Notes under the pieces: generated by a model
Databases searched by the model: none
Told to the model about the DNA's origin: nothing
Seen by the model: the letters and a program-made list of their open reading frames with translations, nothing else
Program-made: the position numbers and the translations under genes
Assembly: GCA_038231275.1 (NCBI GenBank)
Contig: JBBRLQ010000020.1
Span: 1 to 64,000, forward strand
Source of the DNA: Polyangiales bacterium
GTDB lineage: Bacteria > Myxococcota_A > Polyangia > Polyangiales > Polyangiaceae
DNA length: 64,000 nucleotides
Reading direction: 5' to 3'
Part shown: positions 38,894-51,512 of the stretch, in pieces
How positions within the stretch are numbered: position 1 is the first letter of the stretch
Layout of the letters: every line of letters starts with the position of its first letter

Positions 38894-39447
38894 GCCAACC
38901 GCCGAACTATCCGTATCCGCCGGGAACGCAGGGGCAACCGAAGAAGGGCGGGATGGGGATCGTCGCGATCATCCTGCTCGTGGTGCTCGGCGCCGTGGTG
39001 GTCATCGGGGGCATCCTCGCGGTGCTCGCGATCTACGGCACGCGCAAATACATCAGCGCGGCGAAGCAGACCGAGGCCAGGTCCGCGCTCTCGCAAATCG
39101 GATCGCTCTCGAAGGCGGCGTTCGCGCGCGACGGTAAGATCTGCCCCTCGGCCAGCAAGCCCGTCCCGTTCGCCGGCGTCCCGAAGGCGGCGAAGTACCA
39201 GTCGATGCCCGCGGACTGGGAGGCCGACAAGGCGGCGAACGCCGGCTTTGCGTGCCTCGGCTTCGAGATGTCGATGCCGCAGTACTACCAGTACGACTAC
39301 AAGGCGACGGCGACCGGCTTCACGGCGACGGCGCGCGGCGATCTCGACGGCGACGGCGTCACGAGCGAGCTCTCGCTCGAAGGCAAGATCGTCAGCGGCA
39401 ACCTCGAGGTGGCGCCGGTGCTCAAGGAGACGAACGCGGCCGAGTGA
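38890..39447 (+). CDS. Type IV pilin-like protein with atypical N-terminus
   Basis: GILAVLAI...KY...AKQTEAR..L..I helix and TATARGDLDGDG C-terminal motif. Confidence 0.7.
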   Translation: MSQPPNYPYPPGTQGQPKKGGMGIVAIILLVVLGAVVVIGGILAVLAIYGTRKYISAAKQTEARSALSQIGSLSKAAFARDGKICPSASKPVPFAGVPKAAKYQSMPADWEADKAANAGFACLGFEMSMPQYYQYDYKATATGFTATARGDLDGDGVTSELSLEGKIVSGNLEVAPVLKETNAAE

Positions 39448-39489
39448 CACGCCACCACGCCGGTCTCGGCGCTCGGCGGTTCTTGGTGC

Positions 39490-39843
39490 TCAGCGCCGCT
39501 TGATGAACTTCCCGCGCGCTTCGGGGTGCTCGTTCTCGAAGGCTTGCAGGCTCTCCTGGGTGATCTCCACCTCGAGGTCGCCGTCCTTCTCGATCTTGGA
39601 CTGACACCCGAGGCGCGACGAGGCGCGCACGTCGAAGGCCTTGTCGAGGATGTCGTTCTCCTCGTCTTCCATCTCGCTCAAGAGCTCCGAGCCTTTGTGC
39701 ACGTAGACGTGGCACGTCGAGCACGCGCAGACGCCGCCGCACGCGTAGCCCTCCGGCGCGCCGACTTTTTGCGCGGCCTCGAGGATCGACGAGCCGACGG
39801 GAGCCTCGGCCTCGCCGTAGCCGATGAACTTGATGCGCGCCAT
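39490..39843 (-). CDS. fdx: ISC-type [2Fe-2S] ferredoxin
   Basis: ACGGVCACSTCHVYV, SRLGCQ; last gene of the isc operon. Confidence 0.93.
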   Translation of the reverse strand: MARIKFIGYGEAEAPVGSSILEAAQKVGAPEGYACGGVCACSTCHVYVHKGSELLSEMEDEENDILDKAFDVRASSRLGCQSKIEKDGDLEVEITQESLQAFENEHPEARGKFIKRR

Positions 39844-41672
39844 CAGCCCGACACCTCGGTCGCGACGTCGTCGACCTTGCGACCTTCGAACGCCTTGGCG
39901 ATCGCGCGGTTCATGCGGCGCGTCGCGAACTCTTTGCTCGCGAGATCGAGCGCCTCGATGGCCGAGTGCATCTTCGCAGGCTCCGCGCCGCGCGCCGCTT
40001 CTTCCGCGTCGCGAATGGCGGCCTCGATGTGTGCGCGCTCGCCCGCCACGAGGAGGGCCTGGTCGGTGTCGATCGCCTTCTTGGTCGCGGCGACGATGCG
40101 GTGCGCTTCCATGCGTTCCTCGGCGACGCGGCGCGCGAGGAGGTCCTCTTCGCCGTGGTCGAGGGCGTCCATGAGCATCTTCTCCACCGCCTCGTCGTCG
40201 AGACCGTAGGACGGTTTCACGGCGACGGTCTGCTCGATGCCGGTCGTCACCTCTTTGGCGTGCACGGAGAGGAGGCCGTCGGCGTCGACCTTGAGCTCCA
40301 CTTCGAGCTTGGCCATCCCGGCGGCCATCGGCGGGATGCCCTTCAGCGTGAAACGGGCGAGGCTGCGGCAATCGGCCACTAGCTCACGCTCGCCCTGCAC
40401 GACGTGGATCTCGAAGCCGGTCTGCTTGTCCTCTTGCGTCGTGTAGGTTGCGCGCGCGCCGGTGGGGATGGTCGTGTTGCGCGGGAGGATCTTGTCGACG
40501 ATGCCGCCGCCGACCTCGATGCCCAGCGAGAGCGGGAGCACGTCGAGGAGGAGCACGTCGTCGTTCGAGCTGCCCGCGAGCAAATCCGCTTGTACGGCAG
40601 CGCCGAGCGCGACGACCTTGTCGGGATCGATGTCGGCGAGCGGAGCCTTGCCGAAGAGCTTCTCTACATAGGCGCGCACCGCCGGCACGCGCGTCGAGCC
40701 GCCGACGAGGATGACGCCATCGAGCTGCGCAGGCTTGATTCCAGCGTCTTTCAGCGCACGACGGCACGCTACGCCGGTGCGCTCGAGGAGCGGGTGCACA
40801 AGCTCATCGAAGCGGGCGCGCGTGAGCGTCACGCCCTCCACCTCGACCGCCTGCGCGCCAGTGAGCGTGTGCTTCATCTGGCGTGCGAGATCGAGCGCCG
40901 CGCGGATCTCGGAGGGCGAGCCCCCCTTCGCCCCGAGCACTTGCTCGGCCACCGCGCGATCCATGTCGTCCCCACCGAGCGCGCTGTCGCCACCCGTCGA
41001 CTTCACCTGAAAGACGCCGTCCTCGAGGAGGAGGATCGTCACGTCGAACGTCCCTCCGCCGAGATCGTAGACGCAGAAGAGGCCGTTCTTCTTCTTCTCG
41101 AGCCCGTACGCGAGCGCCGCGGCCGTCGGCTCGTTCAGGAGACGGAGCACGTCGAGGCCGGCGAGGCGCCCGGCGTCTTTGGTGGCCTGGCGCTGCGCGT
41201 CGTCGAAATACGCGGGCACCGTGATGACGACACCGCCGACGTTCGTGAGCTCGTCCTCCGCCCGGCGCTTCAGGGCGCGCAGAATGTCCGCGCTCACCTC
41301 GACCGGCGTGACGTCGCGCCCTCGCACCCGAAAGCGCACGACGTTGGGCTCGCCCGGCTTCGTCTCCGCGAACTCGTACGGCCCCAGGCGCCGCGTCTCC
41401 GGATCGTCGGCGCCGCGGCCCATGAAGCGCTTCACGCTGACGATCGTCTCACGCGGCTCCATCGCGGCGCGCGCAGCGGCGAGTCGTCCGACGGTCACCT
41501 CTCCCTTGGGCCCGTAGTTGACGACGCTCGGCACCAAGAAGTCCTGATCGCAGTCGGCGATCGCGGATGGGTGCTCGTTCTGGACGAACGCGACGAGCGA
41601 GTTGGTGGTGCCCAGATCGATGCCGATCGGCTTCGGGGGGGCCTTGGGGTCATAGATCTCAAGCAGCGCCAT
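39843..41672 (-). CDS. hscA: Fe-S assembly Hsp70 chaperone
   Basis: MALLEI start, GIDLGTTNS, TVPAYFDDAQRQAT, DLGGGTFD; isc context. Confidence 0.95.
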   Translation of the reverse strand: MALLEIYDPKAPPKPIGIDLGTTNSLVAFVQNEHPSAIADCDQDFLVPSVVNYGPKGEVTVGRLAAARAAMEPRETIVSVKRFMGRGADDPETRRLGPYEFAETKPGEPNVVRFRVRGRDVTPVEVSADILRALKRRAEDELTNVGGVVITVPAYFDDAQRQATKDAGRLAGLDVLRLLNEPTAAALAYGLEKKKNGLFCVYDLGGGTFDVTILLLEDGVFQVKSTGGDSALGGDDMDRAVAEQVLGAKGGSPSEIRAALDLARQMKHTLTGAQAVEVEGVTLTRARFDELVHPLLERTGVACRRALKDAGIKPAQLDGVILVGGSTRVPAVRAYVEKLFGKAPLADIDPDKVVALGAAVQADLLAGSSNDDVLLLDVLPLSLGIEVGGGIVDKILPRNTTIPTGARATYTTQEDKQTGFEIHVVQGERELVADCRSLARFTLKGIPPMAAGMAKLEVELKVDADGLLSVHAKEVTTGIEQTVAVKPSYGLDDEAVEKMLMDALDHGEEDLLARRVAEERMEAHRIVAATKKAIDTDQALLVAGERAHIEAAIRDAEEAARGAEPAKMHSAIEALDLASKEFATRRMNRAIAKAFEGRKVDDVATEVSG

Positions 41673-42186
41673 TTACAATCTCGTCCTCGATGGCGCTCAC
41701 CTCGTCGAGGAAGCGCCGATAAAACCTGAGCTCGCCCAGCTTCTGGACGAGCGACGTGTCGGCTCCCTTTCGGAAGCCCTCCGACAGCGCGCGATCCGCT
41801 TCCTCGACGCGCGCCTCGATCGCCCGCGCGAGCGCGTTCACGCGATTCATGTCGCGCGCCGCCTTTGCCTCGGCGAGCGCCTCGCGTTGATCCATCATGT
41901 CCATCAAGAGCGCCGCCGACGGCTTCGGCTCCGCGCGCTCGCCCACGGCGATCCCCGCGAGCTCGAACAGCGCCTCCGCGCGCTTCACCGGATCGCGCAC
42001 GATGCGCCAGGCCTCGTTGACCTCCACCGCCTTGGACAGCGCCATGCGACGCTCCCCTGCCCCGCTCCCCACGAACTTGTCGGGATGGAGCGTGCGTGAC
42101 AGCTCGCGGTGCGTCTTCTCGAGCGACGCGAGATTCACGTCGAACGAAGCGCCGAGTCCCAACACCGCGAAGGGGTTCACGGTCAC
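41659..42186 (-). CDS. hscB: Fe-S assembly co-chaperone
   Basis: J domain HPD, NEAW...DPVKRA, LMDMMDQRE, ELRFY. Confidence 0.93.
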   Translation of the reverse strand: MTVNPFAVLGLGASFDVNLASLEKTHRELSRTLHPDKFVGSGAGERRMALSKAVEVNEAWRIVRDPVKRAEALFELAGIAVGERAEPKPSAALLMDMMDQREALAEAKAARDMNRVNALARAIEARVEEADRALSEGFRKGADTSLVQKLGELRFYRRFLDEVSAIEDEIVNGAA

Positions 42187-42608
42187 ACCGTGAAGCTGTG
42201 ACCGCAGCCGCAGTTGGACTTCTCGTGGGGGTTACGCCACTTGAAGCCCTGCTGCATCAGCGTCTGCTCCCAATCGAGCACGGCGCCGCTGAGGTAGATG
42301 AGGCTCTTCGGATCGCAGATGACGCGCACCGGCGTGCCGTCTTGCGCGACGTAGTCGTAGACGCGATCTTTCGCGTGCGGCGGCCCGTCGTGGAACTGAA
42401 TCACGTAGCTGAACCCCGAGCAGCCGCCCCCCTTGATGCCGACGCGCAGCGTCGTATCGGTCGCGCCTCGCTTCTGGATCTGCTTTTTGACGGCCTCGAC
42501 CGCGGCGGGCGACACCGAGATGTCACGCGTCTTGGAGAGGCTCTCCGGCGGCTTCGATTCGGCCGTCGTGGTCTCGGGGGCGGTGGCGACTTCGCTCGAC
42601 ATCATCAC
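42183..42608 (-). CDS. iscA: A-type Fe-S carrier
   Basis: GGGCSG and CGCGHSF motifs. Confidence 0.93.
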   Translation of the reverse strand: MMMSSEVATAPETTTAESKPPESLSKTRDISVSPAAVEAVKKQIQKRGATDTTLRVGIKGGGCSGFSYVIQFHDGPPHAKDRVYDYVAQDGTPVRVICDPKSLIYLSGAVLDWEQTLMQQGFKWRNPHEKSNCGCGHSFTV

Positions 42609-42617
42609 GGTGCCTCT

Positions 42618-43022
42618 CTACTGAGCCTTCACCGCGCGCTTGGCGGCCTGCTTGGCGCGATAGTCGGCGATGGCGCTCTTGATCGCGTCTTCGGCGAGGA
42701 CCGAGCAGTGGATCTTGACGGGGGGGAGGTTCAGCTCGGTGACGATGTCGCTGTTTTTGATCGTCTCCGCCTCGTCGACCGTCTTGCCCTTGATCCACTC
42801 GGTGGCGAGCGACGAGCTGGCGATGGCGGAGCCGCAGCCGAACGTCTTGAACTTGGCGTCCTGGATGATCCCGTCGTCGGTCACCCTGATTTGGAGGCGC
42901 ATCACGTCCCCGCACGCCGGCGCGCCGACGAGCCCGGTGCCAACGCTCGGATCGTCCTTGTCGAGCGTTCCAACATTTCGCGGGTTTTCCGCGTGATCGA
43001 TGACTTTTTCGCTGTACGCCAT
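42618..43022 (-). CDS. iscU: Fe-S scaffold protein
   Basis: MAYSEKVIDH, APACGD, FKTFGCGSA, LPPVKIHC. Confidence 0.98.
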   Translation of the reverse strand: MAYSEKVIDHAENPRNVGTLDKDDPSVGTGLVGAPACGDVMRLQIRVTDDGIIQDAKFKTFGCGSAIASSSLATEWIKGKTVDEAETIKNSDIVTELNLPPVKIHCSVLAEDAIKSAIADYRAKQAAKRAVKAQ

Positions 43023-43073
43023 TTTCTAGTTCCTCATTCCAGCGCGTTTCGAAAATTTTCCCGGGGGGGGAGC

Positions 43074-43101
43074 TCGAGGGAGGGTCCCGACCCTCTCTCG
43101 A
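43074..43101. repeat. Intra-operon stem-loop between iscS and iscU
   Basis: TCGAGGGAGGGT-CCCG-ACCCTCTCTCGA, 12-bp stem with one non-Watson-Crick pair. Confidence 0.6.
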
Positions 43102-43107
43102 ACCTGA

Positions 43108-44340
43108 TCAGTGCGCGGTCCACTGGACCGACTTCAAATCGATGCCTTCTTTGTGCATCTCGTAGAGAGGGCTCATGTCCCGCAGGTGCTTGACCTTGGA
43201 GATGACGAGGTCGGCCACGTAGTCGACCTCGTCATCGGTGTTGAAGCGGCCGAGGCCGAAGCGGATGCTCGAGTGCGCGAGCTCGTCGCCGACGCCGAGG
43301 GCGCGGAGGACGTAGCTCGGCTCGAGGCTGGCGCTCGTGCAGGCCGAGCCGCTCGAGACGGCGACGTCCTTGATCGCCATCATCATCGCCTCGCCTTCGA
43401 CGAAGTTGAACGAGATGTTCAAGTTGCCGGGGAGGCGGTGCTCCATCGATCCGTTGATGTACGTCTCGTCGATCTTCGCCTGGATGCGCGTGCGGAGGCG
43501 CTCGCGGAGGCGGAAGATGTTCTCGTTGTCGGCCTTGCCTTCGGTGCGCATGATTTCGGCGGCCTTGCCGAAGCCGACGATGCCCGGAACGTTGAGCGTG
43601 CCCGAGCGCATCCCGCGCTCGTGGCCGCCGCCATCCATCTGAGCGACGAGGCGAACGCGCGGCTTGCTCCGCCGCACGTAGAGCGCGCCGACGCCCTTGG
43701 GCCCGTACATCTTGTGCGCGGTGATGGATGCGAGATCGACGTTCATCTTCTGCACGTCGAACGGCACCTTGCCGACCGCCTGCACGGCGTCCGAGTGGAG
43801 GAGCACGCCCTTCTCGCGGGTGATCTTGCCGATCTCCTCCAGGGGCTGCACGGTGCCGATCTCGTTGTTGGCGGCCATGATGCTGACGAGGATCGTCTTG
43901 TCGGTGATCGCCTTCTTCACGTCATCGGGATCGACGCGGCCGTCGGTGCCGACGCCGAGGTACGTCACCGTGAAGCCCTCCTTTTCGAGGCGCTTGCACG
44001 TGTCGAGGATCGCCTTGTGCTCGGTGACCGTCGTGATGAGGTGGTTGCCCTTGTCCTTGTAGAACTCGGCGACGCCCTTGAGCGCGAGGTTGTCGGATTC
44101 GGTGGCGCCGCTCGTCCAGACGATCTCTTTGTCGCTCTGCGCGTTGATCAGCTTGGCGACGCGGTCGCGCGCGTACTCGGTCGCTTCCTCTGCCGTCCAT
44201 CCGAAGACGTGGCTGCGGCTTGCCGCGTTGCCGAACTTGCCGCTCGCGAGCTGGAAATACGGGATCATCTCGTCGAGCACGCGCGGGTCGACCGGCGTAG
44301 TCGAGTGGTAATCCATGAAGATGGGGAGCTTCGGCATCAT
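43108..44340 (-). CDS. iscS: Cysteine desulfurase
   Basis: [42 protein letters not shown]. Confidence 0.98.
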
Positions 44341-44919
44341 CTAATCGTCCTTGGCGGCGGGCTTGGTGCCCGCGACGTGGAATCCGGCCACGAGCTCGGG
44401 GACGTGCTCGCGGCAATCGTGGAGATCGCACGAGCGGCACGCGTGGAGCAGGCGCTCCGGATCGCACGTGTCGCACGTGTCGAGGTAAACGAGGCTCGCT
44501 TGAAGCTCGCGCTCGAGGTCCTGCATGCGCCGGATCTGCTCGCGCGCGTCGGCGAGCTTCTTCCGGTAGACGTCGCGCATCTTGACCATCATCCGAGGCG
44601 CGCTCTGGGACTGCTCCCAGTCGCGAACGACCGTCTGAATGTCGGTCAGGCTGAAGCCCATCTCTTGAAGGCGGTGAATCCAGCGGATGCGAACGAGCGC
44701 GTCCCGACCGTACAGTCGGTATCGGCCCTTGGAGCGGGCGGCCGGCCGCAGGAGCTCGAGCTCTTCGTACAGGTGGATGGCGCGAACGGTTTTCCCGCAT
44801 TTCGTTGCGAGATCGCCGATTTGCATGAGCTGATCATCCTCGAGATCCGGCGTCGACGGCACCGCGGCAGGGACCGGCGGCTCAATCGTGCGGAGGATGG
44901 GGAGGCGGATGTTGCTCAT
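44341..44919 (-). CDS. MerR family regulator with five-Cys C-terminal motif; first gene of the isc operon
   Basis: IGDLA..CGKTVRAIHLYEELELL..YRLY HTH, GFSL.DI, coiled coil, CDTC-X8-CRSC-X4-C; TAG abuts iscS ATG. Confidence 0.9.
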   Translation of the reverse strand: MSNIRLPILRTIEPPVPAAVPSTPDLEDDQLMQIGDLATKCGKTVRAIHLYEELELLRPAARSKGRYRLYGRDALVRIRWIHRLQEMGFSLTDIQTVVRDWEQSQSAPRMMVKMRDVYRKKLADAREQIRRMQDLERELQASLVYLDTCDTCDPERLLHACRSCDLHDCREHVPELVAGFHVAGTKPAAKDD

Positions 44920-44925
44920 TGGTAT

Positions 44926-44992
44926 GACCCATACGTCTTACGTTAAGGATCGACTTGAGGGAACATGTACGGTCGAGGGAGCCCCTCGTCAA
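44926..44992 (-). promoter_or_regulatory. Sigma70-like promoter and dyad elements of the merR-isc operon
   Basis: TTGACG (44992-44987) then TACATG (17 bp) or CATGTT (19 bp); dyad CGAGGG-N3-CCCTCG at 44974-44988; imperfect ACGT dyad at 44929-44948. Confidence 0.55.
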
Positions 44993-45085
44993 GCGAAAAA
45001 CCCGGCGGTTCCGCGGAGGTCGGCCTTACGATCGGCCTTCCGTAACGACGAAGAAATCCAGCTTGAGCGGCCAAACGGGCGCTTG

Positions 45086-45101
45086 GGGCACGGACCTCGC
45101 A
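45086..45101 (+). promoter_or_regulatory. Sigma54-like promoter of the TPR gene
   Basis: GGGCACGGACCTCGCA (GG-N10-GC), about 38 bp before the ATG. Confidence 0.5.
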
Positions 45102-45138
45102 AGCTCCTCCTCTCTTAAGGAAGAAGGAGCGAAGGTGG

Positions 45139-48100
45139 ATGGCGAAGCGCGGCTCAAACGCGCAGATTCGAGTCGGCGTGGCGGATGATCGAGAGCCCAC
45201 CTGGGTGTCCGGTGATCCGGACGACACCCGTCCGACGACGCAATTCCCCGTCGCCCGCGACAGCTCGCTCGACGACGCCGAGGTCGCGCAGCACTTGCCG
45301 CTGCCGAACGCCAGCTCGGGCGAGGTGATGGTCGTGCCCGAGCCCGAGTCGCTCCGCGATCTCGAGACGCTCGTGGCGATGGAGAACGCCGACACGGTCG
45401 CCCGCACGGGCCCGCGCCAGGGGTCGCAGAGCGGCTTCGTCACCGGCGACGAAGAGACGCGCTTGCGCGTGACCGGACGGTGGGAGGAGCTCCTCGAGCT
45501 GTACCTCCAGAAGCTCGAGGCGACCGAGGCGCCGAAAGGCAAGGCGGACATCTTCAAGCGCATCGCCGAGGTGTTCGATCAGCGCCTCGCCGATCCGGAG
45601 CAGGCGATCGACGCGCTCGTGGAGGCGCTGACGCTCGATCCGTTCGACTACGACGCCGTCGACATGATCGAGGCGCTCGCGCGGCGCACGAACAAGTGGT
45701 CGCCGCTCGTCGTCGCGGTCGACGACGTAATGAAGAAGTGCTCCGATCGCGAGCGGCAAGCCAAGCTCTGCGAGCACTTGATCCGCTGGTACTCGGTGGA
45801 GAAAGGCGCGCCGGAGCTCGCCGAGCAATACAAGGAGCGGATCCGGCGGCTCGACCCGAAGCACCCCCTCGTGCAGCTGGAGCTCGCGGCGGGCTACAAG
45901 GATCAGGGCAACTGCGCCCTCGCGAAGGACGCGTTCACGCGCGCGCTCGACGGGCTGCGGCGCAAAGACCGCGTCCCCGTCTACGTGGCGCTTGGGGACC
46001 TGTACGAGTTCTACCTGAGCGACGTGAACGAGGCGCAGAAGGCCTACGACGCGGCGCTCGAGATCGCGCCGGAAACGCTCGACGCTCTCGGAGGGCTGGA
46101 GCGCATCTATCGCGCGCAGGAGAAGTATCGCGAGCTCGAGGGCGTCCTCGAGAAACAGGGAGAGAGCGCGGCGGCGTCGAGCGAGGATCGCGCGCAAGCG
46201 CTCATGCGATTGGCGCTCCTGCACGAGCGGCATTTCTTGAGGTACGACGCGGCAGCGCGGACGCTCGGCGTCGTGCTCGATCTCGATCCGCGGCGCGACG
46301 AGGCGCTGGAGGCGCTCGAGCGCTGCCAGATCGCGCTGCGGGCGTGGGCCGACGTCATCGCCACGCTCGACCGGCGCGCCAACCTCGCGCGCGATCCGGC
46401 GCAGCGCGCGGTCCTGCTCGGGCGCATGGCGGAGGTGCAGGAAAGCAAGCTCTGCGATCTCGAGGCGGCGAGCGACGCCTACGAGCGGATGACCGCGGCG
46501 GACGGTAACGCGAGCGCGCCGCTCACCGAGCTCGCGCGCCTCGCCGAGAAGCGGCAGGACTGGGGGGCCACGGCGGCCTACCGCGCGCGCCTCGCGCAGC
46601 TCGCGCCCGACGCGAACCAGGCGGCGCAGATGCTCGTCCAGATCGGCGACATGCTCTCGGCGCCGGGTCGCGACCCGGACCGCGCGCGGCACTACTACGA
46701 GCGCGCGCTCGGGATGACGCCCGGACACGTCGGCGCCTGGGAGGCGCTACAGCGCGACGCCGAACGACAGGAAGATCCGTCGCGCGTCGCCTACTGCCTC
46801 GAGCAGCGCGCGGGACTCACGGACTCGCCGCGCGCGCGGGCCCAGCTCCTCGTCGAGCTCGCGCGCGTCAAGAAGCAGATCGGGTCGGAGAGCGGGGCCT
46901 ACAGCGCGTACCAGGACGCCGTCGCCGCCGATCCCACGAACGAGACGGCCGCGGCCGCCGTACTGCCCGCGCTCGCGAAGGAGTCGCGTTGGCCCGAAGC
47001 GGCGCCGCTCTGCGAGCTGCTCGTCAACGCGGCGACGCGCGACGGCGATCACGAGCGCGCGTTCAGTCTGCTCCGCCTCGCGTCGCGCATCGCGACGAAG
47101 ATGGACAACCTGGAGCGCGCGGTCATCGCGGCGCTCGCGGCGTACGAGCTCGATCGACGCGCGCCGGAGGGGCAGTCCGATTTGCTGGTCGTGTGCGAGC
47201 TCGCCAAGGACAACCCCGCCGTGCTCGCCCGCGCGAAGAGTGCGATCGCGGAGATCGGTGAGAACGCCGCCGCGCTAGGTGCCGGCTCCCTCGTCCACCT
47301 CGCCGCCGTCGAGCGCGCGCTGGGCGACGACGCGCGCGCGCTCGACACGTTGTCGCACGCGCTCGCCAAGGAGGCCGAGCACGTCCAGGCGCTCGCCGCC
47401 GCCAGCGAGATTTACGCGGCGCGCGGCGATTTCGAGCACGCCGCCGCCTTCAAGAAGCGCCTCGCCGAGGCCGCCGCCGACGACGCCTCCCGCTACGCGC
47501 TCCTCGTGGAAGCGGGCGAGACGTGGACCCATCGCGCCAAGAACCTCCCGATGGCCGCCCTCGCCTTCGAGGACGCGCTGATCCTGAAGCCGAAGGACTC
47601 GTGGCTCCTCCACACGCTCCTCTGGGTGTACGGCGAGCTGTCGTGCTGGGAGAAGCTCGTGGAGACGCTGCGCGCGATCGTCGAATTGGATCGCGACCCG
47701 GTGAAGAAGGCCAAGGGGGTCTTCACCATGGCGCAGGTGATGCGCGACAAGATCGACGATCCGTACCGCGCGGCGGAGCTCTTCGAGGAGACGATCGCGG
47801 TCGATCCGACGCGCCTCGACGCGTTCGAACGCGTCGTGCGCATCTACACCGAGCTCAAGGACTGGGCGGCGCTCGAAAAATCGTACCGGCGCATGATCCA
47901 CCGGACGAGTGACGACGAGGTGGAGCTACGGCACGCACTCTTCCATCAGCTCGGGCTCATCTACCGCGATCGCATCGGCAACGCCGACGGCGCGCTCGAC
48001 GCGTTCCGAGCCGCCGGCGCGCTCAAGCCGAGCGACGAGAACCGCAAGATCGTCTCCGAGCTCTACGTGGTCGCCGGGCGCATCGACGACGCGCTCCGGG

Positions 48101-49110
48101 AGACGCGCGCGGCGCTCGAGGCCGAGCCGTCGAGCGTGGGCCTCTACACGACGCTCTACGATCTGTTCCTGCGCGCGCGCACGTTCGACAAGGCCTGGTG
48201 CGCGATCAACGTGCTCGCCCACATGGGCCCGCTGTCGACCGAGCAGCGCAAATTCCACGACGACTACCCGCCGGTCGCGCTGTCGTACGTGCCGGGGATG
48301 ATCACGCCGGTCGCGTGGCGCTCGCACATCCTGCACAAAGAGCTCGATCCGACGCTGACCGCGATCTTCTCGGTGATGGCGCAGGCGACGGCGCGCGCTC
48401 GAGCGGCGATGATCCCGCCTGCGCAGCGCGCGACGGCGTTCGGCGAGCCGATGCGCCCCGACCACTCCTACAACGCGGGGGCGCTGCTCGACGCGGTCAC
48501 CCACGCGGCGGCAATCTTGAGCGTGCCGGTCCCCAGCGTCTTCGCGCGGAGAGGGCCTCCGCAGCCGCTCGCGATCGCGGCGTCCTCGGTGCCGGCGCTC
48601 GTTTCGTCGTGCGAGGCGCTGGACTCGATGTCGCACGAGGCGATCGCGTTCCTGGTCGGCAAGCGCCTCGCGGATCTTCGTCCCGAGCTGTTCGGGCGCG
48701 CGATGTTCCCGACGGTGTCGGAGATGACGGCAGCCCTCGCCTCCGCCGTCCGTATCGTCAAGGGCGAGATGTCGTCCGATCCGGCGATCGCGCGCGCCGA
48801 TCGCGAGCTGGCGACGCTGATGAGCCCCGACGAGCGCGCGACGCTGCAAGGCGCGGTGATGCGCGCGACGTCGACGAACGCGAGGCTGGACGTGAAGCAG
48901 TGGTCGCGGCTCGCCGATTTGACGAGCTCGCGCGTGGGGCTGCTCCTGTGCGGCCACGTCGAGTACGCGCGACGCGCCATGCTCCAGGACGGCCAGAGCG
49001 CCTGCGATCTGCCGCCGCGTGCGCGTGTCCAACAGATGTGCCTCTTCGCCGTCAGCAGCGAGTTCGCCGAGCTTCGCGCGGCGATTGGCGTCGACGTGGC
49101 AGCAACGTAG
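45139..49110 (+). CDS. Large TPR-repeat protein (myxobacterial AgmK-like style)
   Basis: 1323 aa, many helical A...Y..AL..DP....AL..L repeats; AAGGAG upstream. Confidence 0.85.
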   Translation: MAKRGSNAQIRVGVADDREPTWVSGDPDDTRPTTQFPVARDSSLDDAEVAQHLPLPNASSGEVMVVPEPESLRDLETLVAMENADTVARTGPRQGSQSGFVTGDEETRLRVTGRWEELLELYLQKLEATEAPKGKADIFKRIAEVFDQRLADPEQAIDALVEALTLDPFDYDAVDMIEALARRTNKWSPLVVAVDDVMKKCSDRERQAKLCEHLIRWYSVEKGAPELAEQYKERIRRLDPKHPLVQLELAAGYKDQGNCALAKDAFTRALDGLRRKDRVPVYVALGDLYEFYLSDVNEAQKAYDAALEIAPETLDALGGLERIYRAQEKYRELEGVLEKQGESAAASSEDRAQALMRLALLHERHFLRYDAAARTLGVVLDLDPRRDEALEALERCQIALRAWADVIATLDRRANLARDPAQRAVLLGRMAEVQESKLCDLEAASDAYERMTAADGNASAPLTELARLAEKRQDWGATAAYRARLAQLAPDANQAAQMLVQIGDMLSAPGRDPDRARHYYERALGMTPGHVGAWEALQRDAERQEDPSRVAYCLEQRAGLTDSPRARAQLLVELARVKKQIGSESGAYSAYQDAVAADPTNETAAAAVLPALAKESRWPEAAPLCELLVNAATRDGDHERAFSLLRLASRIATKMDNLERAVIAALAAYELDRRAPEGQSDLLVVCELAKDNPAVLARAKSAIAEIGENAAALGAGSLVHLAAVERALGDDARALDTLSHALAKEAEHVQALAAASEIYAARGDFEHAAAFKKRLAEAAADDASRYALLVEAGETWTHRAKNLPMAALAFEDALILKPKDSWLLHTLLWVYGELSCWEKLVETLRAIVELDRDPVKKAKGVFTMAQVMRDKIDDPYRAAELFEETIAVDPTRLDAFERVVRIYTELKDWAALEKSYRRMIHRTSDDEVELRHALFHQLGLIYRDRIGNADGALDAFRAAGALKPSDENRKIVSELYVVAGRIDDALRETRAALEAEPSSVGLYTTLYDLFLRARTFDKAWCAINVLAHMGPLSTEQRKFHDDYPPVALSYVPGMITPVAWRSHILHKELDPTLTAIFSVMAQATARARAAMIPPAQRATAFGEPMRPDHSYNAGALLDAVTHAAAILSVPVPSVFARRGPPQPLAIAASSVPALVSSCEALDSMSHEAIAFLVGKRLADLRPELFGRAMFPTVSEMTAALASAVRIVKGEMSSDPAIARADRELATLMSPDERATLQGAVMRATSTNARLDVKQWSRLADLTSSRVGLLLCGHVEYARRAMLQDGQSACDLPPRARVQQMCLFAVSSEFAELRAAIGVDVAAT

Positions 49111-50495: not shown

Positions 50496-51512
50496 TCAAG
50501 AGCGAACCTCCTTCGTCTCGCGCACGGGAGATGCGCGCATGTGGCTTTCCAAGAACTCGTGTGTCTTCTTCCACTTCAGGCGTGCGGCCGGACGCCAGAC
50601 CATCGCATCGTAGCCGTGGATCTCGCCGGGTTGCACGAGGAGCTCGCACGATGATCCGATTCGATCGAGGGCGGCCTTCAGCCTGCGCGCGTGGGGAAGG
50701 AGCGGATCTTTGGTGCCGGCGTTGGTGAAGAACGCCGGCATCGGGCGTGTGGGGCGGAAGCCGTTCTCGAGGAGAAGCAGCGGGCTCGACAGAGGATTTT
50801 TGCGCACGCCGCCGTGCACGTCGTGACCGACGTAGAACACCGCCGCGTCGCTGAGCATGTCGCGCGCCCAGAACGCCATCTTGGGGTGGAGGCGGTAGCG
50901 ATCGACGTCGGTGAGATCGAGGAACGGGTACGTCGACACGACCGCGCGGAGGGGCAGGTCGGCGTCGTAGATCGCACGCGCGAACGGCTCGGGGCGGCGC
51001 GTCGCGTGGGCGATCGCCAGCGCGGTGACGAGGTTGCCGCCTGCGCTCTCGCCCGCGATCGCCAGGCGCGCCTCATCGCCGCCGTACTCGGCGCACCGCT
51101 CGCGCACCCACAAGAGGGCAGCGCACGCGTCCTCGAGGGGCGCGGGGTAGAGGTGCCGCGGTCCGAGGCGGTAGTTGATGTTGAAGACGAGGTACCCGCG
51201 CCGCGCGTAGGCGAGCGCCATCACGCGGTGCGTGTCTTTCGACAACATCGAGAAGCCCCCGCCGTGGACGTACATGACGACGGGCATGGGGCGCCCGGCC
51301 TGCGCCGGGATGTACACGTCGAGGCGATGGGCGGCATCCCCGGGATCGGCGTAGGCAACGTCGTGATGAACGACCACGTCGTGCCGAGTAGGGTGGGCGT
51401 CGGGGAGCGCGTAACGCACGCGCGCGAAGGCATGCGCCGCCTGGTTCACTACGGCCGCTTGAACGGCGCCGCGCGTCGCGCTGAGGCGCTGACGGATGGA
51501 GGGTCCTGCCAT
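50496..51512 (-). CDS. Alpha/beta hydrolase, hormone-sensitive-lipase-like esterase
   Basis: HGGG, NYRL, GESAG, DPL, HGY. Confidence 0.92.
   Translation of the reverse strand: MAGPSIRQRLSATRGAVQAAVVNQAAHAFARVRYALPDAHPTRHDVVVHHDVAYADPGDAAHRLDVYIPAQAGRPMPVVMYVHGGGFSMLSKDTHRVMALAYARRGYLVFNINYRLGPRHLYPAPLEDACAALLWVRERCAEYGGDEARLAIAGESAGGNLVTALAIAHATRRPEPFARAIYDADLPLRAVVSTYPFLDLTDVDRYRLHPKMAFWARDMLSDAAVFYVGHDVHGGVRKNPLSSPLLLLENGFRPTRPMPAFFTNAGTKDPLLPHARRLKAALDRIGSSCELLVQPGEIHGYDAMVWRPAARLKWKKTHEFLESHMRASPVRETKEVRS

Follow-up and report, generated by a model that had tools for sequence, protein, structure and literature searches.

A four-cysteine MerR-family gene ahead of the isc operon in a Polyangiales bacterium and its relatives

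A MerR-family gene at the head of the isc operon

The stretch analyzed here, 64,000 nucleotides of a Polyangiales bacterium (GenBank assembly GCA_038231275.1, contig JBBRLQ010000020.1, positions 1 to 64,000; hereafter the window), carries an operon for the biogenesis of iron-sulfur (Fe-S) clusters whose leading gene, merR, encodes a MerR-family regulator. From position 44919 to position 39490 on the minus strand, the genes merR-iscS-iscU-iscA-hscB-hscA-fdx form a single compact row (Table 1). Read directly, the merR stop codon TAG occupies positions 44343 to 44341 and the iscS ATG starts at 44340, with zero gap between them, exactly as an earlier reading made from the sequence alone (the sequence-only reading) had noted. 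Farther along the row, iscA and hscB overlap by 4 nt, hscB and hscA by 14 nt, and hscA and fdx by 1 nt, the fdx ATG sharing one base with the hscA stop codon. The same reading had placed iscU-iscA-hscB-hscA-fdx after iscS, and each of these genes obtained Pfam and NCBIfam matches that agree with it. The NCBIfam equivalog cut-offs were passed by IscS, IscU, HscB, and HscA. The A-type carrier scored above the cut-off of TIGR00049 and under that of the IscA equivalog model, and the fdx product contains a Fer2 domain, yet its score with the fdx_isc model remained under the cut-off.

Pfam found only generic MerR domains in the merR product, including PF13411 and PF00376, and no Rrf2 domain match was obtained with either Pfam or NCBIfam. 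The NCBIfam equivalog models CueR, MerR, ZntR, CadR, SoxR, and HspR all scored far under their cut-offs. In bits, the values were 62 versus a cut-off of 147.4 for CueR, 57.9 versus 150.85 for MerR, 54.6 versus 167.95 for ZntR, 49.6 versus 151.45 for CadR-PbrR, and 46.2 versus 116.9 for the SoxR model TIGR01950. An AlphaFold2 model based on 55 relatives reached a mean pLDDT of 88.9, and on this model the product is a member of the MerR superfamily by its winged helix-turn-helix and long helix. Foldseek grouped the model with CueR, CadR, PbrR, MtaN, BmrR, and SoxR, with a probability of 1.00 to CueR, CadR, PbrR, MtaN, and SoxR. When the family profile was compared with solved structures, MerR (4ua1) was the best match (E value of 2e-22), followed by CadR and CueR; PbrR matched as well, and SoxR more weakly. 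These matches were limited to profile positions 12 to 121, which comprise the DNA-binding domain and the long helix; no solved structure aligned with the cysteine part beyond position 121.

The C terminus of the protein reads C149-D-T-C152, x8, C161-R-S-C164, x4, C169, with histidines at residues 159, 167, and 172, which is the CDTC-X8-CRSC-X4-C arrangement with nearby His residues given in the sequence-only reading. In the model, the long helix (residues 107 to 149) ends at C149, C152, C161, and C164 lie on a loop and a short helix that follow it, and the last helix spans residues 175 to 183. With C149 closing the long helix and the other three in the next loop, the four cysteines are, as modeled, located where metal-sensing MerR proteins and SoxR hold their ligands. 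The earlier statement that the motif lies outside both the SoxR and the CueR patterns stood, since the spacing differs and both equivalog scores are under their cut-offs. Assignment of the product as a SoxR was therefore rejected (C-x2-C-x8-C-x2-C versus C-x2-C-x-C-x5-C, with TIGR01950 under its cut-off), and so was assignment as a CueR, ZntR, MerR, or CadR equivalog, all of which remained under the curated NCBIfam cut-offs. A search of the ESM Atlas with the C-terminal 55 residues returned scores of 0.85 to 0.88, none of which reached the significance level; the sixth-ranked entry was a fragment cluster of the SoxR family.

The window stretch is present in one DNA sequencing run. In three soil metatranscriptome runs, contigs of relatives (80 to 95% alike) cover parts of merR and iscS, with DNA carry-over possible; none of the listed pieces from these runs spans the merR-iscS junction. 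About 29 additional N-terminal residues precede the Fe-S_biosyn domain of the A-type carrier.

Table 1. Features of the merR-isc locus (positions in the window) and loci of the sister subfamily
Feature	Position	Strand	Basis
merR, four-cysteine MerR-family regulator, 192 amino acids	44341..44919	-	Pfam MerR_1, MerR, MerR-DNA-bind
iscS, cysteine desulfurase	43108..44340	-	TIGR02006, 649.9 bits versus cut-off of 643.2
iscU, scaffold	42618..43022	-	TIGR01999, 226.5 bits, above cut-off
iscA-type A-type carrier	42183..42608	-	TIGR00049, 97.5 bits versus cut-off of 58.8
hscB, co-chaperone	41659..42186	-	TIGR00714, 73.3 bits versus cut-off of 46.75
hscA, chaperone	39843..41672	-	TIGR01991, 782.2 bits, above cut-off
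fdx, [2Fe-2S]-type ferredoxin	39490..39843	-	PF00111 (Fer2); fdx_isc, 79.3 bits versus cut-off of 132.1
Winged helix-turn-helix DNA-binding domain, residues 32-99	44623..44826	-	PF13411, E value of 1.1e-14; model helices 34-41, 45-53, 72-86
Long dimerization helix, residues 107-149	44473..44601	-	AlphaFold2 model; PF09278 at residues 75-141
Four-Cys module, C149-x2-C152-x8-C161-x2-C164	44428..44475	-	Alignments and cysteine counts
-35-like hexamer TTGACG	44987..44992	-	Read directly
-10-like hexamer TACATG	44964..44969	-	Read directly; 17 nt after the -35-like hexamer
Operator-like element, three 9-nt half-sites spaced by 4 nt	44921..44955	-	Alignment with closest relatives
Sister-subfamily loci	L119:5308-6633, L125:5333-6448, L118:4778-6456, L124:5923-8778		

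Conservation of the cysteine module and of the gene order

A word-indexed search returned 1,456 relatives of the merR product, the most specific name among them being "MerR family copper efflux regulator," and an exhaustive search returned 80 clusters with E values below 1e-30. To avoid circularity, the cysteine count was based on 177 homologues that were drawn by similarity of the DNA-binding part, regardless of the motif, and whose C terminus lies on the contig. C-x2/3-C-x6-11-C-x2-C occurs in 175 of these 177 sequences, and the two without it look truncated or frameshifted. Alignments A1 and A2, assembled from sequences picked for the motif, likewise show the four cysteines without exception. 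A fifth cysteine equivalent to C169, within eight residues of the motif, is found in only 22 of 175 homologues; the nearby histidines are not conserved either. Of the five-cysteine motif put forward in the sequence-only reading, C149, C152, C161, and C164 were thus upheld, whereas C169 and the histidines were not. Judged by these counts, the candidate sensor motif is four cysteines, not five. Of the 175 homologues with the motif, 174 have a P-x-L-V-type tail behind it, and the merR product carries both marks of the subfamily, the four-Cys motif and this tail.

The position of merR ahead of iscS is not a chance arrangement, because homologues precede iscS in 20 of 20, 68 of 80, and 68 of 80 loci, respectively, in the three sets that were fetched. 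These 180 loci comprised 20 from the nearest relatives, 80 from a species-level genome collection, and 80 from metagenomes, the last retrieved with more distant members (A2). Altogether, the merR-iscS synteny seen in the window proved to be conserved, with iscS as the next gene in 156 loci and a suf gene in 13; 9 of the remaining 11 have less than 300 nt of downstream DNA. Where at least 300 nt was available, a Fe-S biogenesis gene on the same strand came next in 169 of 171 loci. A merR-type match was detected in 38 of the 41 nearest genomes (a set that contains the window's own), and iscS lies immediately downstream in every locus fetched from this set, the window's own among them. The genome-collection loci are divided into 68 with iscS-iscU-iscA-hscB-hscA, 10 with suf, 1 with short DNA, and 1 unresolved. 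Besides the 68 with iscS, the metagenome loci include 3 of the suf type, 8 in which the contig ends within 300 nt, and 1 exception. The gap between merR and iscS had medians of 9 to 14 nt, and no metal-efflux or detoxification gene was linked in any locus examined.

Among the named records of the isc type are Labilithrix luteola, Chondromyces apiculatus, Nannocystis, Sandaracinus, Sorangium, and Haliangium, and 8 of the 10 suf-type genome records carry the name of another phylum, Candidatus Eisenbacteria. In the suf loci, the regulator gene is followed by an A-type carrier gene (sufA) and then sufC-sufB-sufD, or by sufC first. The SufB gene of one Candidatus Eisenbacteria genome (L082:5432-7861) contains an intein with a LAGLIDADG domain. 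Among 251 sampled Myxococcota genomes, 62 have a full-length strong match (E value of ≤1e-45). Every one of the 18 genomes sampled from the window's family is among them, along with several families from other classes. Of the strong matches fetched from other Myxococcota classes, 8 of 9 have isc genes downstream.

Intermediate matches, with E values from 1e-27 to 1e-38 and 24 to 30% identity to the window protein, constitute a sister subfamily. Its members have a different recognition-helix sequence and the tail LPRAxxxLW, and they share the same C-x2-C-x8-10-C-x2-C module (loci in Table 1). One of them precedes iscS-iscU-fdx. As far as the sequences indicate, the four-Cys module is older than the link to Fe-S operons and not exclusive to it.

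The absence of an Rrf2 gene from the window, another point of the sequence-only reading, was confirmed. The sole Rrf2 match of the 9.28-Mb assembly, which is 94% complete, lies on contig C22 at 50593 to 50973 (L021:1441-1890), lacks the clustered IscR cysteines, and is followed by genes for a PALP enzyme and a ThiF-family protein. It looks like a cysteine-metabolism regulator, a likeness suggested because the IscR cysteines are missing and because of its PALP and ThiF neighbors. A SufB/SufD-type protein was not found in this assembly, which apparently leaves ISC as the sole system for Fe-S assembly detected there.

One Myxococcota family, f29, has a different regulator at the same place. In f29, the four-Cys MerR was found in none of 22 genomes and a three-Cys Rrf2 in 14 of 22. 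This Rrf2 gene precedes iscS in 12 of 12 fetched loci, with iscU next in 11 (L217:2731-3132, L233-L244). The closest model to the f29 Rrf2 is a Xanthomonas-type suf regulator, with a score under the cut-off, and an Rrf2 of the f29 type was present in none of the other 229 sampled Myxococcota genomes, among them the window's own. Of ten Myxococcota genomes that lack the four-Cys MerR, most have NifS-like desulfurases only; a true IscS was found in two, and in one of these the Rrf2 of the f29 type, with C-x8-C-x5-C, precedes iscS. MerR and Rrf2 take the same position in different Myxococcota lineages without co-occurring in the sample, and owing to kinship the counts behind this exclusion represent few independent events.

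The upstream palindrome and its promoter

Counting of 7-mers exposed a 22-bp palindrome, ACCCTnACG-N4-CGTnAGGGT, upstream of the gene. It is present with at least 13 of 16 fixed positions in 89 of 100 loci, and the same palindrome precedes the suf-linked genes of Eisenbacteria. A weight matrix was built from 79 family sites (training median score, 31.8). When it was applied to metagenome loci outside the training set, 68 of 77 scored at least 20, compared with a background maximum of 16.4 in the window's genome. Of the five lowest-scoring metagenome loci, four have less than 120 nt of sequence upstream; the remaining one belongs to a truncated gene.

In the genomes of five relatives (7 to 12 Mb), palindromes with zero or one mismatch were found at the merR-isc locus only, and sites with two mismatches were as frequent as those of a reversed control pattern. 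The two-mismatch sites were rejected as a regulon, as most of those inspected lie inside coding regions. One at L109 belongs to an unrelated MerR gene without cysteines, and one about 360 nt before a PALP-enzyme gene of Chondromyces (L111) was considered too weak. A genome of the Polyangiaceae (L104/L108; G043:C1:1598222-1598310) contains two perfect palindromes 67 bp apart at its merR-isc locus.

In 60 of the 89 loci with the palindrome, a TTGACn, 16 to 18 nt, TAnnnn pair is located just upstream of it, and in 58 of these 60 the end of the TAnnnn hexamer falls within a span from 15 nt before the palindrome to 4 nt inside it. The chance expectation for seven fixed bases in that span is approximately 1%, an estimate made without a shuffle test. 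The arrangement of classical activators, with the dyad inside a 19- to 20-bp spacer, was not seen in these 60 loci, where the palindrome comes behind the predicted -10 hexamer and the two hexamers are only 16 to 18 nt apart. It would cover roughly the transcript start and the early leader of a predicted promoter of ordinary spacing. Because the palindrome sits behind such a promoter and not inside a long spacer, the layout resembles that of a repressor and suggests that transcription is blocked by occlusion.

The window has the upstream palindrome solely as a diverged copy that is shared with the closest relatives. Aligned with them, the operator-like element has the same layout, with half-sites H1 at 44955 to 44947, H2 at 44942 to 44934 (CGTAAGACG), and H3 at 44929 to 44921. 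H2 (CGTAAGACG) is well kept in comparison with the family half-site, and H1 is one base off that of relative L005. The element extends from 8 nt past the -10-like hexamer to 1 nt before the start codon. The hexamer TACATG also occurs in relatives L006, L017, L046, L080, and L002. As a predicted site, the operator is strong for the family but weaker for the window's genome.

A terminator scan of positions 39300 to 45300 gave terminator-like sites at chance level only. On the opposite strand, an open reading frame rich in TPRs (1,323 amino acids, 45139 to 49110, plus strand) starts 219 nt from merR, and the two genes have a common divergent intergenic region.

Proposed function and comparison with known regulators

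The sequence-only reading had proposed a MerR-type regulator that provides feedback control of Fe-S biogenesis. Its core is supported by the synteny with isc and suf genes, by a palindrome found, at no more than one mismatch, at this locus only in five genomes, and by the Rrf2 gene in the same position in f29. The five-Cys motif did not survive, and the module, which the sister subfamily carries beside other genes, is not exclusive to Fe-S operons. On this basis, it is very probable that the merR product regulates the isc operon. That it does so as a repressor is probable, and the chances that its signal is a Fe-S cluster are about even. For the protein as a whole, we lean slightly toward a dedicated, autoregulating isc repressor predicted to sense the Fe-S supply via its four cysteines.

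Such a repressor would operate as follows. The MerR dimer would bind the palindrome, and its occupancy would block transcription of merR-iscSUA-hscBA-fdx; a block is predicted because the site runs from about the transcript start, behind a promoter with a 16- to 18-bp spacer. The four cysteines would hold a Fe-S cluster supplied by the ISC machinery itself. The cluster-loaded form would be bound and repressing, while the cluster-free form, expected under high demand, iron or sulfur shortage, or oxidative loss, would be released and the operon transcribed.

Several observations weigh against this proposal, and some concern the window itself. With the family matrix, the element upstream of merR scores only 3.1, far from the training median, and no convincing palindrome was found anywhere in the window's 9.28-Mb genome (best score, 16.4). 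Because the matrix scan gave no convincing site, no regulon can be read in this genome, and binding there is predicted from a diverged element. Likewise, a strict promoter scan of positions 39300 to 45300 found no promoter-like site; the TTGACG/TACATG pair was not listed because its second hexamer ends in G. Within the family, the promoter-like pair is absent by simple pattern in 29 of 89 loci, and a strong family member, L133, does not adjoin isc genes. The sister subfamily adjoins the genes for GTP cyclohydrolase I (folE) and Lon-N-domain proteins, and elsewhere unrelated genes, so that the four-Cys module may sense something more general than Fe-S supply. Finally, a C-x2-C ... C-x2-C arrangement also fits zinc or mononuclear iron.

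These last two points bear on a regulator that would hold a single metal on the four cysteines, either a structural or sensory Zn(II) or a rubredoxin-like Fe, and would respond to the metal or to thiol oxidation. Under oxidative stress, for example, the cysteine pairs could become oxidized, with loss of the metal and relief of repression. Cys4 sites for zinc or iron are usually built from two C-x2-C pairs, the nearest solved relatives by both sequence and fold are the metal sensors MerR, CadR, PbrR, and CueR, and a metal or thiol-switch reading stays alive because the sister subfamily carries the module beside genes outside Fe-S biogenesis. Thiol-based MerR sensors, NmlR and AdhR, exist according to a review (PMC11672702). 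We nevertheless regard a single-metal site as unlikely: the family almost only heads isc or suf operons in two phyla, where the cluster-sensing IscR and SufR are also placed, and the loci examined contain no linked gene for efflux or detoxification. The same gene order bears on the notion that merR is a mere neighbor that regulates something else, its position before iscS being meaningless. L133 and the sister subfamily, neither of which adjoins Fe-S genes, would suit such a view, which we consider very improbable given that a same-strand Fe-S gene comes next in 169 of 171 loci at a median gap of 9 to 14 nt, that the linkage persists through the switch from isc to suf, and that palindromes with no more than one mismatch occur at the merR-isc locus only in the five genomes.

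A further alternative concerns the mode of action. A classical MerR activator would sit on its promoter in both states and switch it by DNA distortion, as SoxR and CueR do. The merR product belongs to the MerR superfamily and has a long dimerization helix and, in the canonical location, a sensor loop, and a 9-4-9 palindrome of 22 bp is the usual size of a MerR operator. However, in 60 of 89 loci the palindrome comes only after a -35/-10-like pair spaced by 16 to 18 nt rather than within a 19- to 20-nt spacer, and no alternative -35/-10 pair flanking it was evident on reading the sequences. We consider an activator improbable. Going beyond the window, we tentatively suggest, with slightly less than even confidence, that the repressor proposed here represents a third dedicated class of Fe-S regulator beside IscR and SufR. 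It would use a MerR scaffold, carry a cluster on C-x2-C-x8-C-x2-C, and repress from a site at the transcript start; it would have replaced the Rrf2-type IscR in most Polyangia and in several other Myxococcota lineages, and it would head suf operons in Eisenbacteria.

Most of what is known about the control of Fe-S assembly comes from IscR, SufR, and a small number of other regulators. Such regulators are missing at the isc operon of large groups of bacteria from soil and sediment, here myxobacteria of the class with Sorangium, Chondromyces, Labilithrix, and Nannocystis. If the repressor reading is true, the same feedback problem has been solved there on an unrelated scaffold. The merR product would be the second Fe-S-bearing MerR protein after SoxR, acting by occlusion rather than DNA distortion, and the chemistry of the MerR sensor loop would be wider. 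The parts form a compact set of one protein, one 22-bp site, and one operon, and the switch from isc to suf between phyla offers a natural experiment for finding out to what the sensor responds. The sequence-only reading had called the regulator possibly undescribed, and no description of a MerR-type isc or suf regulator was found in the literature searched, which was judged from titles and abstracts and had subscription journals outside its range.

Within the MerR superfamily, the best sequence and fold matches of the merR product are MerR, CadR, PbrR, CueR, and ZntR, from which it differs in its cysteine pattern and in having no linked efflux or resistance gene. SoxR, the [2Fe-2S] redox sensor, resembles it in superfamily, in fold, and in four cysteines of one chain placed right after the dimerization helix. 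The compact CIGCGCLSxxC of SoxR, as given in the 2024 review (PMC11672702), contrasts with the C-x2-C-x8-C-x2-C of the merR product. SoxR targets soxS or efflux genes from an operator inside a long spacer, whereas the predicted target of the merR product is a Fe-S assembly operon and the palindrome of its family follows the -10-like hexamer. The MerR sections of the review list SoxR, as the only one with a Fe-S cluster, together with NmlR and AdhR as redox-sensing MerR proteins, and CoaR, MliR, and NimR as unconventional metal-sensing ones, and they describe no regulator like the merR product (PMC11672702). MliR is a MerR-superfamily protein tied to iron homeostasis and, according to its authors, has no effector domain and no cysteines (PMC9478572). 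Unlike the merR product, MliR has no linkage to isc or suf genes.

Outside the superfamily, the closest parallels are functional. SufR, the cluster-bearing suf repressor of cyanobacteria and actinobacteria, is a dedicated regulator encoded at the suf operon, a position that the Eisenbacteria members of the present family also take. SufR proteins are members of different DNA-binding families and share no sequence relation with the merR product, for which NCBIfam gave no SufR match. IscR, the [2Fe-2S] Rrf2 protein of Escherichia coli and other Proteobacteria, has a different fold, the merR product having a MerR winged helix and coiled coil, and a different operator. Its ligand set is three cysteines plus a histidine, compared with four cysteines here, and the window family shows no wider regulon at one mismatch or less in the five genomes. 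The merR product is, at most, a functional analogue of IscR. The likeness lies in the first place in the isc operon, in a set of cysteine ligands, in presumed autoregulation from a site at its own promoter, and in a likely feedback of Fe-S supply on iscSUA-hscBA-fdx, and in f29 an Rrf2 gene occupies exactly this position. A branch of the MerR superfamily is thus likely to do a job similar to that of IscR and SufR.

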